Assembly: GCA_964397085.1 (NCBI GenBank)
Contig: CAYNHH010000007.1
Coordinates: 1 to 31,258 of the forward strand
Reading direction: 5' to 3'
Source: an uncultured Candidatus Saccharibacteria bacterium
GTDB taxonomy: Bacteria > Patescibacteriota > Saccharimonadia > CAILAD01 > BJGX01
DNA length: 31,258 nt
The notes beneath the pieces are model-generated. The model searched no databases and had not been told where the DNA came from. It saw only the letters and a list, made by a program, of their open reading frames with translations. The position numbers and the translations under genes are program-made. Positions 9,808-16,018 of this stretch are shown piece after piece; position 1 is the first letter of the stretch; the number at the start of each line of letters is the position of its first letter.

Positions 9808-9854
9808 CAAAAAAAATAAAAAGCCCCTCACATAATGTGAAGGGTAATTTTTAT
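9808..9854 (-). terminator. rho-independent terminator (hairpin CCCTTCAC-ATTA-GTGAGGGG then U-run on the minus strand; also T-run on the plus strand)
   Basis: Inverted repeat at 9824-9844 flanked by A-run (9808-9822) and T-run (9848-9852). Lies just downstream of the minus-strand gene 9901..10263. Confidence 0.5.
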
Positions 9855-9900
9855 ATATGCACAAGTAATTCACTACTTGCGCAAAGACACTACACGCATT

Positions 9901-10263
9901 TTACTGCCGTATTCTGCGATCTTGCTGAGACACAGCGACTCTTGGCGAATGAACAATCAAGTTCAAGTTGATATGCAAATGGTCAGCAAGACGAATAGCA
10001 AACATCAAGTCCCATCGCTCGCTGTCGAAGATAGAGTCGGTATATTCACGGCTCCATCCTGTCAGTCTACAGAATTGCTCTGCACTGGTATGGTTGCGCT
10101 TTATGTACTCCAATATCTCATGTCGAATCTGGTTTGCCAGATGCGATTCAGTAGAGCTCACGCTTTCTGGATGAAAACATCCCCCAGGTACCCTAGCTGT
10201 ATTCGCTACATTCGTCATATCTCCCCCGTTCGGTAAAGGTGCTTCACCATATTCCATTCTCAT
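9901..10263 (-). CDS. hypothetical 120-aa protein, possible XRE-like helix-turn-helix regulator (island)
   Basis: Segment LANQIRHEILEYIKRNHTSAEQFCRLTGWSREYTDSIFDSER resembles an HTH_XRE helix-turn-helix. Flanked by terminators on both sides. GC content clearly higher than the window's left part. The antisense + ORF 9877..10236 is Cys/Arg-rich and judged a shadow. The choice of coding strand is not fully secure. Confidence 0.4.
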   Translation of the reverse strand: MRMEYGEAPLPNGGDMTNVANTARVPGGCFHPESVSSTESHLANQIRHEILEYIKRNHTSAEQFCRLTGWSREYTDSIFDSERWDLMFAIRLADHLHINLNLIVHSPRVAVSQQDRRIRQ

Positions 10264-10283
10264 CTCTTCTCAAAATAATTGCA

Positions 10284-10323
10284 ACAAAAAACAGACTCTG
10301 TACAAATAGAGTCTGTTTTTTTG
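10284..10323 (-). terminator. bidirectional intrinsic terminator (ACAGACTCT-gtacaaat-AGAGTCTGT flanked by A5 and T6)
   Basis: Perfect 9-bp inverted repeat at 10291-10316 with T-run 10317-10322 and A-run 10286-10290. Sits between the RRM gene stop (10340) and the 9901..10263 gene. Confidence 0.65.
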
Positions 10324-10339
10324 ATCTAGCAAGCTAGAA

Positions 10340-10597
10340 TTAGTCGCGAGGCTGCTGTGGGCGAGCTTCGCTTACAGTAATAGCACGACCATCGATTTCT
10401 TTTCCGTTGGTAGCTTCAACAACAGCGTTAATATCTGCGCTTTCAGCTAGTTCAACAAAACCAAATCCTTTGCTACGACCATTCATACGATCGGTGATAA
10501 CGTTTGCAGAAACAACTTCTGCGCTCTCACCAAAAATTTCAGCAAGCTGCTCTGAAGTAACACTATAGGGCAGATTGCCAACAAATAACTTTTTCAT
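10340..10597 (-). CDS. RRM-type RNA-binding protein (single RNA recognition motif, 85 aa)
   Basis: RNP2 LFVGNL and RNP1 KGFGFVE motifs. Overall matches bacterial Rbp/glycine-rich RNA-binding protein family. ATG at 10597. A long (~110 nt) 5' UTR follows a TGcTATAAT extended -10 at ~10704-10712 (minus strand). Confidence 0.85.
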   Translation of the reverse strand: MKKLFVGNLPYSVTSEQLAEIFGESAEVVSANVITDRMNGRSKGFGFVELAESADINAVVEATNGKEIDGRAITVSEARPQQPRD

Positions 10598-10764
10598 GTA
10601 TCTTGTAGTAACCTTGTTTAATTATCTTGGAGCAGGACGACCTTCTTTTCTTACCTTTCGTCTTGAAACAAGAGAACTAAAGAAACGAAACCTACTAAGC
10701 TACATTATAGCACATCTGAAGCAAGAATACTAGGGGTTTACAGCGACTCACTTCAGCTTCTTTA

Positions 10765-14372: not shown

Positions 14373-14508
14373 TCTTTGAACTCGTTTTCTCTCGAGTCCA
14401 GAAAGCTAATTGATTCTACAATATTACCCTATATAAATCAATACTTTTGCAGATCGAAGTCAATAAAAAGCGACCTCGGTAAAAAACCGAAGCCGCAATA
14501 GTCTAGCC

Positions 14509-15351
14509 TTAATGACTACGCAATACCCCAAGCGCCTTTTCGCGCCCCTCATTGATGCGCACTTGCCACTCTTGCATCAAGGCCTTATCAATCGAGCTAT
14601 CATCGCCCAAATGCGCATAGTCACTTGGGTAAATTGGCTTACACACCACCCCAACAATTACCTGACGGCACAGTATACCTCTCCGTATCACTGGGTCACC
14701 CTTAGCGCAACCAGCCAAAGCAATTGGTAGAATTGGGCAACCAGAGCGTCGAGCGATGCGTGCTGTACCACTCTTGCTATAATCAACCACCTCTTTACCT
14801 ATGCGTGTACCTTCAGGGAACATCTCTACAGGCACGCCACGCTTGAGAGCCGCAACTGCCACGTCTAGGCCCTCTTCAGCCGTATACGAGGCCATACGGG
14901 CCTTCTCAATCTTCTCAGGCGTGTTCTTCTTACTAGGCTTACCGTCAATGCTGGGGCGAAAGATTGGTACTGCTCCTACGCGCTGATTCATCATTGCGAG
15001 GGGCCAATACTTACAAAAGCTTGGCTTACATACCCAGACTAGTCCACGATGAAACAAACCAATAAATGGTATGTCCCACACCTTGCCATGATTTGCCGCA
15101 ATCACAAAGGCGTGATCATCAATCTTGGCCTTACCTTTGCGTCGGTACCAATTTGGGCGATAGCGCACTCCACCAGGTTGAGGAATGTGTTGTTCGTTGT
15201 ACAACTCTGCTTTCATAAAAAGGCGTGCGAGGTTAATAATAATGCCCCGGAACAAGTAATACCCTGTGGGGTATGCCACACCGGTAGCACTCTTCAGTCT
15301 GTTAAGACGCTTTCGTTCAGCTCGATCAATAACTGCAGTTTGAGGCCTCAT
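14509..15351 (-). CDS. plsC: 1-acyl-sn-glycerol-3-phosphate acyltransferase-like (PlsC/LPLAT family)
   Basis: HX4D-type motif variant (FVIAANHGKVWD) and FPEGTR motif. ATG with a strong AAGGAG SD. Elevated GC like the rest of the block. Confidence 0.75.
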   Translation of the reverse strand: MRPQTAVIDRAERKRLNRLKSATGVAYPTGYYLFRGIIINLARLFMKAELYNEQHIPQPGGVRYRPNWYRRKGKAKIDDHAFVIAANHGKVWDIPFIGLFHRGLVWVCKPSFCKYWPLAMMNQRVGAVPIFRPSIDGKPSKKNTPEKIEKARMASYTAEEGLDVAVAALKRGVPVEMFPEGTRIGKEVVDYSKSGTARIARRSGCPILPIALAGCAKGDPVIRRGILCRQVIVGVVCKPIYPSDYAHLGDDSSIDKALMQEWQVRINEGREKALGVLRSH

Positions 15352-15452
15352 GCCTTTTGACTCCTTGTGAATAGGTACTAGAGAAAGACAGGTAGTATTA
15401 TTGCCTATATTACCCAGTTACACAAGCCAATACCGGGCTATTTCTAATCAAT

Positions 15453-15481
15453 AAAAAAAGACCTAGTATTATTACTAGGTC
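15453..15481 (-). terminator. intrinsic terminator (GACCTAGTAAT/ATTACTAGGTC hairpin + U7 on the minus strand)
   Basis: Near-perfect 11-bp inverted repeat at 15460-15481 with A7 at 15453-15459 on the plus strand. Lies downstream of the 15544..15876 gene. Confidence 0.65.
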
Positions 15482-15543
15482 TAGGGGCTGATCGTAGTAG
15501 CCTTCAGGCCAAGATCCTCCACCCCTGTCTTCTCGTTCTAATG

Positions 15544-15876
15544 CTAGAACGAAGGTGGCGATGTGAAGCTCAACCAGAGCATCACCACGCACACCAGGGC
15601 ACCAATGCCATTGATCGTAGGTAGCCAGAAGTTCTTCTTCAACTCCTGGCTAGTAAAGTACTTGAGTGTGACCATGCCGGCCGCAAGCATCACAGCCAAA
15701 CCAGACCCGAAGATCACGTACAGCTTGATCTGCGCATCAAGGCTCTGACCAAAAACGACCAAGATCATAAGCCCAGAAAACCAAACGAACTTGGCCAAGA
15801 TGGTGCCTAGGATGACCTTGCTCTTCCTCATTTCGAAATCATCGTAGGTGAATGTGGCAGTTGCAGCAGTAGCCAT
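15544..15876 (-). CDS. small membrane protein (110 aa, 2-3 TM), hypothetical
   Basis: ATG with a GAAGGAG SD. Hydrophobic segments VILGTILAKFVWFSGLMILVVF, LYVIFGSGLAVMLAAGMVTL, ALVCVVMLWLSF. Terminator follows. Confidence 0.5.
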   Translation of the reverse strand: MATAATATFTYDDFEMRKSKVILGTILAKFVWFSGLMILVVFGQSLDAQIKLYVIFGSGLAVMLAAGMVTLKYFTSQELKKNFWLPTINGIGALVCVVMLWLSFTSPPSF

Positions 15877-16018
15877 CGAGGCTCCTTCTCTTATCCATCT
15901 GAAAAGACAGATATTGGGTACAATCTGAAGATCGAATACATATTAGCACAAGTATTTATATTTGTCAATAATATTCTCAATATCAAAAAAGACCTCCGTG
16001 GATCACGAAAGTCCCTTT

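Follow-up and report, generated by a model that had tools for sequence, protein, structure and literature searches.

A GC-rich, strain-variable zone with a vault protein homolog downstream of ssrA in an uncultured Saccharibacterium

A 31,258-base contig of an uncultured Candidatus Saccharibacteria bacterium (CAYNHH010000007.1; hereafter the window) carries a GC-rich block of genes directly beside ssrA, the gene for transfer-messenger RNA (tmRNA). One gene of the block encodes a major vault protein (MVP) homolog, MVP being the shell protein of eukaryotic vaults. The original prediction read the block, placed at 9850-15900, as one old genomic island inserted at the 3' end of ssrA. Comparison with relatives suggests that the block is instead a zone whose gene content varies by single transcription units. 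Coordinates refer to the whole contig, the zone genes all lie on the minus strand, and relatives are given as loci labelled L###.

Genes, signals and borders of the zone

Downstream of ssrA, the minus strand encodes in order a 110-amino-acid (aa) protein, a PlsC-like acyltransferase, the MVP homolog, a 257-aa protein, an 85-aa protein with an RNA recognition motif (RRM) and a 120-aa protein. Next come fba and smpB, convergent with the zone genes, and then argS, again on the minus strand. Every block gene comes with a sigma-70-type promoter and an intrinsic terminator of its own, which gives four independent transcription units (promoters at 15968, 14441 and 11675; terminators at 15482, 14496, 11727 and 10806). 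The promoter and terminator scan thus agrees with the prediction of host-type expression signals. The promoter motif TTGACT-N17-TAGAAT is indeed common to ssrA and the 257-aa gene, and the MVP promoter reads TTGATT-N17-TAGAAT. The features are as follows, with coding sequence abbreviated to CDS, open reading frame to ORF and GC content at third codon positions to GC3.

16421-16449, minus strand: ssrA promoter TTGACT-N17-TAGAAT (promoter scan)
16019-16410, minus strand: tmRNA gene ssrA (ARAGORN; Rfam RF00023, 120.8 bits)
15983-16018, minus strand: ssrA's own intrinsic terminator, which bounds the variable zone on the right as a fixed border (alignment of relatives)
15459-15982, minus strand: unit A, with promoter 15940-15968, CDS 15544-15876 (110-aa membrane protein; GC3 0.694) and terminator 15459-15482
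14459-15458, minus strand: unit B, PlsC-like acyltransferase, with CDS 14509-15351 (GC3 0.470) and terminator 14470-14496; Pfam PF01553, 7.8e-15
11732-14458, minus strand: MVP cassette, with promoter 14413-14441, leader 14325-14412 and CDS 11766-14324 (GC3 0.486 over ORF 11766-14372)
11696-11731, minus strand: terminator used in common by the window's MVP cassette and by the purEC cassette of L162 (alignment, terminator scan)
10741-11695, minus strand: unit D, with promoter 11647-11675, CDS 10819-11592 (GTG start; GC3 0.526 over ORF 10819-11628) and terminator 10781-10806
10280-10740, minus strand: RRM-protein unit, the fixed left-hand border, with promoter and leader 10598-10740, CDS 10340-10597 and terminator 10286-10321
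9901-10263, minus strand: 120-aa protein, syntenic and fast-evolving (homologs 35-91% identical)

The compositional shift is real. Mean GC of the window is 0.425; between 10.75 and 15.75 kb it reaches 0.45-0.54 in 500-nt windows, and most flanks lie at 0.34-0.45. With borders taken from synteny, the zone (10741-15982) has a GC of 0.487 and the remainder 0.413. Of all 5.2-kb windows on the contig, the most GC-rich begins at 10651, and its best rival without overlap reaches only 0.441. A sliding profile, the check proposed for the predicted island, is not flat: GC shifts at 10.75-15.75 kb, and tetranucleotide deviation is maximal at 11-14 kb (z = 2.3-3.3). The four zone genes hold GC3 ranks 1-4 among 29 genes (P ~0.001 for any four adjacent genes) and stand z = 2.1-7.3 above the other 25 (0.378 +/- 0.043). 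Since this shift falls at synonymous sites, block composition is not merely an amino-acid effect. Antisense shadow ORFs are concentrated in the block as predicted, at 3.4 per kb against 1.5 per kb outside.

Other compositional details needed correction. The overall GC level is elevated but lies at about 48-50% rather than 50-55%, and the left edge falls at ~10740, about 0.9 kb further in than predicted; the segment 9850-10740 has a GC of 0.42, and the GC3 of the RRM gene is 0.29. The GC-rich block coincides with the fixed synteny borders, the ssrA terminator (~15983) and the RRM promoter (~10740). An expected shift toward Ala, Arg, Gly and Asp is clear, as GARP fraction, only in MVP and the PlsC-like protein, and the other block proteins stay within the background range. 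Outside the block, the ComM gene is moderately GC-rich too (GC 0.476).

The right end of the block adjoins the ssrA 3' end, as predicted, but the border itself lies outside the gene. The hairpin and T-tract of the ssrA terminator occupy the same position in 15 of 15 aligned relatives, and alignment is lost only past the T-tract, so that in these 15 lineages the divergence junction falls beyond the terminator and not within the ssrA 3' end. The claim that the ssrA 3' end served as the integration site therefore does not fit. Two of its companion observations stand: a second copy of the ssrA 3' end (20 nt, at most 3 mismatches) is absent from the window, and domain searches found no integrase or recombinase in the ORFs of 9.8-16 kb or elsewhere in the window. 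A search of 7.9-17 kb for att-like direct or inverted repeats bounding the block returned nothing beyond chance matches. PADLOC, PHROGs and NCBIfam gave no informative match for the MVP, 257-aa, 110-aa and 120-aa proteins. A defence or phage origin of the zone proteins was considered and rejected, as no integrase, phage or defence domain was found.

Variation among relatives and the MVP/PurE-PurC swap

A search of metagenome contigs with the 32-nt ssrA 3' end yielded 79 loci, about ten of which come from relatives of this organism. Four of them (L095, L114, L123 and L087; tmRNA 80-85% and GT4 78-82% identical to the window) share the order MGDG synthase, GT4, ssrA, one small unrelated gene, PlsC-like gene, RRM gene and 120-aa homolog. 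The order runs on through fba, smpB and argS in L095 and reaches fba in L123; L114 and L087 are concordant to their contig ends. The same position, with GT4-ssrA on one side and RRM-fba-smpB-argS on the other, is kept in L091 also. The PlsC-RRM gap in the four relatives is only ~210 bp and holds neither MVP nor the 257-aa gene. On one side of this gap, the PlsC end and terminator align to window 14559-14458; on the other, their RRM promoter and leader match window 10739-10557 with 88-90% identity. These four lack 3.7 kb that the window carries.

The 257-aa protein led to the closest relative, L162, which resolves the MVP unit more finely. It matches window positions 14907-14459 (89%) and 11730-9813 (90%), and exactly in the MVP slot it carries a 440-aa PurE-PurC fusion (AIRC + SAICAR_synt; L162 539-1861, GC 0.51). 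The left breakpoint lies directly after the PlsC terminator T-tract and the right one directly before the terminator hairpin common to L162 and the window. By this alignment, the terminator at 11696-11731 belongs to the site rather than to the cassette. Because the MVP/PurE-PurC swap separates genomes with ~90% identical flanks, the zone is not uniformly old, contrary to the predicted old acquisition. All five intrinsic terminators of the region, on the minus strand, end in TTTTTATT (9824-9844, 10781-10806, 11704-11727, 14470-14496 and 15459-15482), and the cassette breakpoints against L162 and L095 are located at TTTTTATT T-tracts. Such T-tracts could supply microhomology for exchange.

The PurE-PurC gene of L162 places a purine-biosynthesis step on a swappable accessory cassette. 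The Saccharibacteria lineage is usually described as being without de novo nucleotide synthesis.

The remaining units vary on their own schedules. The 110-aa protein is without family; its sole homolog, 91% identical, lies in contigs having tmRNA, the 110-aa gene and PlsC (L244-L247, in the same relative group, with L247 from the same sample as L162). Unrelated genes fill its slot in L095, L114/L123, L087, L091 and L003. The 257-aa protein, whose mechanical ORF extends to 11628 (257-269 aa), has an acidic tail and homologs at 86-89% identity in L162 and L163, and its gene is missing from L095, L114, L123 and L087. The 110-aa and 257-aa genes are thus common only to relatives that are ~90% identical, and the MVP unit occupies the zone in this contig alone among the compared relatives. 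L091 has four different genes in the ssrA-RRM interval. One of them, a 131-aa gene (L091 2552-2947, reverse complement with tmRNA on the plus strand), has a GC of 0.61 and a GC3 of 0.86 in a genome of GC 0.44, and is another clearly atypical cassette in the same hot spot.

The PlsC-like gene has a longer history in the zone. It is syntenic in L095, L114, L123 and L087 at 64-80% identity and appears from this distribution to be an older resident, present across the whole subclade in strongly divergent alleles. PlsC of L123 (6512-7384) and L087 (2687-3505, reverse complement) is 70% identical, against 92% for GT4 and 100% for RRM. The window PlsC is closer to that of L095 (80%) than to that of L123 (67%), and GT4 and tmRNA group the taxa oppositely. 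Such discordance between PlsC and GT4/tmRNA similarity has the appearance of a signature of recombinational allele replacement.

The zone is therefore not absent or present as one block; its units vary independently among relatives. Presence/absence variation beside ssrA does exist, gene by gene, and the block is accessory, atypical and free of mobility genes as proposed, but it is not one ~6 kb insertion. Of the six genes named as cargo, four are variable. The RRM and 120-aa genes are, with fba, smpB and argS, conserved syntenic residents outside the variable zone.

The RRM protein (Pfam RRM_1, 2.5e-21) is 94-100% identical across relatives. Its promoter and ~110-nt leader keep 88-90% DNA identity to L095, L123, L114 and L087 and are also kept in L162 and L091, and the adjoining intergenic DNA is unalignable among relatives. 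RNAalifold folds the leader into a hairpin that is long and imperfect and contains just 2 compensatory pairs, and Rfam has no match for it; the leader may be a candidate for autoregulation or stress response. For the 120-aa protein, Pfam, NCBIfam, PADLOC and PHROGs hold nothing, and no profile confirms its earlier label of a small HTH-like protein.

Three further observations concern the surroundings of the zone. L123 carries, at 8428-11451 between the gene for the 120-aa homolog and fba, a gene for a 1007-aa repeat-rich, probably surface-exposed protein, and this insertion marks a second variable site just beyond the zone. At window 4091-6103 (plus strand), a 670-aa ORF without Pfam match is syntenic in L095 at 49% identity, against 68% for the neighboring argS; by this comparison its product appears to be a fast-evolving large protein. 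The contig ends (30874-31258, minus strand) in a bacterial class A RNase P RNA, which is complete (218.9 bits).

The MVP homolog, its control region and its distribution

The MVP gene appears to encode a homolog that covers the full length of the shell protein of eukaryotic vaults. The product has 852 aa from an ATG placed at 14324 by comparison with L003 and by an SD-like (Shine-Dalgarno-like) GGGGA just upstream; the mechanical ORF extends to 14372 (868 aa). The protein matches MVP_shoulder (PF11978; 1.8e-29, 102.6 bits, cut-off 25) and Vault_3 (PF17795; 2e-9, 37.8 bits, cut-off 28.8), and reaches 17.7 bits for Vault (PF01505), under the cut-off of 27. Band_7 also passes its cut-off. The homolog is collinear by sequence with PDB vault chains (phmmer, 2e-19).

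An AlphaFold2 model extends this similarity. The model has a predicted local distance difference test score (pLDDT) of 56 and a predicted template modeling score (pTM) of 0.26, and only the shoulder, the cap helix and the Foldseek ranking were used from it, with TM-scores ignored. The top Foldseek matches are human, rat and rabbit vault cages (E ~5e-21, ~950 aligned columns); flotillin and other SPFH proteins rank well behind. The shoulder is well predicted, residues 669-793 form a single helix (pLDDT 55-84, mostly >70) that aligns to the cap helix of rat MVP, and residues 27-530 are beta-rich at low confidence. By homology, the product presumably forms a large cage.

Compared with eukaryotic MVP (PDB 4V60, 9BW5), the window protein is collinearly similar across the N-terminal motif, a putative beta-repeat region, the shoulder and a cap helix of ~125 residues, and it is similar in length (852 aa against about 860-890 aa). 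It differs in that structural-alignment identity is only ~18% and in that it also scores as SPFH/Band_7. Eukaryotic MVP has vault RNA and TEP1/PARP4 partners; in the window, Rfam found only tmRNA and RNase P RNA. The 257-aa acidic-tailed protein was considered as vault cargo and rejected, since it has its own promoter and adjoins PurEC rather than MVP in L162. Its wider family of 97 representative clusters has no Pfam or PDB match by profile search, and a family profile run against 245 loci found members only in L162 and L163 and none near MVP; the AlphaFold2 model of the protein (mean pLDDT 40.6) was excluded from the fold search.

The control region of MVP appears to travel with the gene. 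The swapped segment starts ~17 nt upstream of the -35 element, and the leader of ~90 nt (14325-14412, minus strand) contains the TCCCTTgaAAGGGGA hairpin over the SD. The GTAGAAT -10 element and the TCCCTTgaAAGGGGA hairpin recur upstream of MVP in L003-L007, at unrelated loci. In RNAalifold, the hairpins of the MVP and RRM leaders are conserved with almost no covariation, and no RNA element is claimed for either.

MVP relatives are widespread and patchy. Across ~185,000 species genomes, 361 stretches encode one, and >3,900 matching proteins occur in a metagenome protein set. The nearest MVP loci among species-representative genomes all belong to Candidatus Saccharibacteria (64-70% identity), followed by Paceibacterota and Parcubacteria. 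Relatives at 43-48% come from many phyla, including Myxococcota, Desulfobacterales, Riflebacteria, Vulcanimicrobiota, Chloroflexota, Bacteroidota and Sericytochromatia. The contig index holds no exact match to the window MVP. In a coarse neighbor-joining tree, the window MVP nests in the Saccharibacteria clade of L003-L007; several long branches of this tree come from a wrong ORF, and only the window placement was used. Full-length MVP relatives are also encoded on 167 contigs of the IMG/VR viral collection (L164-L243 among them), many of 100-500 kb, the best at 48%.

Two preprints describe MVP homologs from bacteria and phages in silico; the abstract of the first names Myxococcales, Cytophagales and Oscillatoriales (bioRxiv 10.1101/872010, 2019), and the second reports gut phages (bioRxiv 10.1101/2023.11.10.566534, 2023). 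These homologs resemble the window protein in belonging to the same family, in a Band_7-like shoulder (chemotrophic bacteria), in patchy taxonomy and in phage carriage. The literature searched contains no mention of MVP together with Patescibacteria and no report of MVP as a strain-variable cassette.

A conserved MVP operon was considered and rejected, since no neighbor gene is constant in 82 other MVP loci. Neither the variable-zone proteins nor the 120-aa protein occur within 10 kb of MVP in these loci; the RRM protein has one 51%-identical match ~5 kb from MVP, in L076.

Stable RNA genes recur beside MVP. In Candidate Phyla Radiation (CPR) genomes, 6 of 15 loci, and the window as well, have MVP on the same strand as a tRNA or tmRNA gene and <2 kb downstream of it, which amounts to about four independent placements (tmRNA, tRNA-Leu/Val, tRNA-Asn and tRNA-Arg); of the 12 tRNA or tmRNA genes across the CPR loci, 8 are no more than 2 kb away from MVP. 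The MVP start is 150-980 bp downstream of the tRNA in L005, L045, L046 and L009. The pattern is suggestive of MVP parking in tRNA-adjacent flexible sites and is not statistically secure. The tRNA genes concerned are as follows; those upstream of MVP lie on its strand.

L005 683-861: tRNA-Leu and tRNA-Val
L045 3155-3228 and L046 9775-9848: tRNA-Asn
L009 366-442 and 4608-4697: tRNA-Arg near MVP, with tRNA-Ser also downstream

MVP also carries a codon bias of its own. Over 79 MVP loci including the window, its GC3 follows flank GC3 (r = 0.87), and it exceeds the flanks in nearly all CPR loci, whatever the position.

L003: MVP GC3 0.49, flank GC3 0.35
L005: MVP GC3 0.85, flank GC3 0.51
L006: MVP GC3 0.83, flank GC3 0.52
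L052: MVP GC3 0.64, flank GC3 0.36

In this window, the MVP preference for G- over A-ending codons is 0.78, against 0.43 for the background and 0.40 for translation genes, and its preference between C- and T-ending codons is ordinary. MVP GC is accordingly weak evidence on transfer in either direction. The zone neighbors are unrelated to MVP and are GC3-rich as well, so an MVP-specific effect cannot account for them. The GC of the block is probably a mix: MVP has its gene-specific bias, and the other genes would owe theirs to foreign or recombinant origin or else to biased gene conversion.

Origin and meaning of the zone

Most likely, the 5.2-kb stretch bounded by the ssrA terminator and the RRM promoter is a flexible multi-cassette zone remodeled by recombination, and not an integrase-borne island. 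We infer the mechanism from the discordant PlsC alleles together with published work: natural competence and cassette insertion through homology arms of ~1 kb have been demonstrated experimentally in Saccharibacteria (PMC10633639), and both genomic islands and transfers that are mostly intra-phylum are reported for Patescibacteria (PMC12455944). The four transcription units of the zone are self-contained and differ in their histories. DNA would be taken up through the natural competence system and would recombine through conserved flanks, ssrA/GT4 on one side and RRM/fba/smpB on the other, or through neighboring units. Recombination of this kind would swap, add or remove single expression units. 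The window lineage would have gained MVP probably from another Saccharibacterium. Every block protein with detectable homologs has its best matches in the same lineage, an outcome that the original prediction named as refuting: the best MVP matches are Saccharibacteria (64-70%), and the other proteins match only syntenic close relatives. The original prediction was right in spirit and wrong in kind, since the zone is not a single island and its ages are layered.

A gain of MVP in the window lineage is moderately favored over ancestral presence, and several points weigh against it. In the more distant relatives L003 and L004, MVP also lies 1.4-1.8 kb downstream of ssrA, and its identity to the window MVP (69-70%) equals that of core genes (64-73%); linkage to ssrA and core-like divergence fit ancestral presence with later losses. 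The parsimony argument for gain is weak because the branching of the three nearest lineages comes close to a trichotomy and their gene signals are mosaic. The MVP excess of GC3 regardless of position makes its GC poor evidence of recent transfer. Among the 120 best-scoring matches listed, no MVP is >70% identical and so a possible donor. The sample, finally, is one contig for the window and mostly short metagenomic contigs for the relatives.

The ssrA linkage and core-like divergence in L003 and L004 are the strength of the alternative that survives best, which we nevertheless regard as rather unlikely: that MVP, perhaps with the whole zone, was ancestral near ssrA and descended vertically, and that deletion between terminators removed or replaced units in the relatives. 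GC would then reflect gene-specific selection, such as the codon bias of an abundant shell protein, or GC-biased gene conversion in a recombination hot spot, and not foreignness. The nesting of the window MVP within the Saccharibacteria clade, the tracking of host GC3 by MVP and its excess over the flanks in almost every CPR locus, and the host-type character of all expression signals are further points in its favor. Vertical descent, however, requires at least two independent precise deletions and one replacement in a shallow clade, and the PlsC-RRM spacers of L095 and L123 resemble one homologous intact intergenic region. The shared position in L003 and L004 is approximate only, as the genes flanking MVP all differ there, with neither PlsC nor RRM among them. 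The G-ending preference of MVP (0.78 against 0.40 in translation genes) is not the host high-expression pattern, and three unrelated neighbors are GC3-rich as well. The contigs of L003 and L004, independent assemblies of related species, break ~2 kb downstream of MVP, as would be expected if the region were heterogeneous within those populations.

A classical island is far less probable. ssrA is a frequent integration site, used by CP4-57 of E. coli and VPI of Vibrio cholerae, and the block resembles such elements in its position downstream of ssrA, accessory content, compositional shift and variability between relatives. An island in the ssrA 3' end would, however, have had to lose both its integrase and its attachment repeat. 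Unlike CP4-57 and VPI, the zone has neither an integrase nor a duplicated ssrA 3' segment, it is not a single unit, and its border lies past the ssrA terminator, which is intact and homologous in all lineages, with variation starting beyond it. Content changes unit by unit with breakpoints at terminators deep within the block, two of the six genes taken for cargo turn out to be conserved residents, and no cargo gene travels with MVP in the 82 other MVP loci.

An assembly or binning artefact, in which the assembler joined an MVP segment of another strain or organism, is the least credible reading: the window is a single metagenome-derived contig, both MVP junctions are seen here only and the L003 and L004 contigs both end soon after MVP, but both junctions lie in ordinary intergenic DNA with matching promoter and terminator, every other junction is reproduced in independent assemblies, the nearest MVP relatives are Saccharibacteria whose flanking core genes are the same, and a chimera requires two crossovers without shared sequence inside the cassette.

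As an island, the zone is unremarkable, one more flexible region next to a stable-RNA gene. Additive and replacement flexible islands beside tRNA and tmRNA genes, remodeled by homologous recombination, are known in marine and other free-living bacteria. The zone is like them in its fixed position between core genes, cassette-wise content differences in close relatives, atypical composition, lack of mobility genes and adjacent stable RNA gene. It differs in being very small (5 kb, four single-gene units), in having a promoter and terminator per unit with breakpoints at terminator T-tracts, and in its host, an ultrasmall, naturally competent epibiont lineage. The case also cautions that a GC-rich block abutting ssrA is not necessarily integrative, a third of the proposed cargo having turned out to be residents.

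The exchange of MVP for PurE-PurC is a single-gene cassette replacement resolved to the base pair in a naturally competent member of the CPR. It fits a role for recombination, rather than mobile elements, in driving strain-level variation in reduced genomes. A bolder idea, offered tentatively and with considerable doubt, is that the Saccharibacteria MVP is a self-contained, horizontally exchanged module of promoter, leader masking the ribosome-binding site and ORF, which is borne by transformation and repeatedly lands downstream of tRNA and tmRNA genes. If true, some strains of these epibionts, 0.2-0.3 µm in size, would thereby have a vault-like protein cage as an option. More speculatively, the recurrent linkage of MVP to stable RNA genes may point to a function related to RNA, on the model of the vault RNAs of eukaryotes.

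We know of no function for bacterial MVPs. In Saccharibacteria, MVP appears as a full-length, dispensable and strain-variable gene with a conserved control region, and a tiny, genetically tractable lineage with natural MVP presence and absence would be a handy place to study the role of vaults in prokaryotes.

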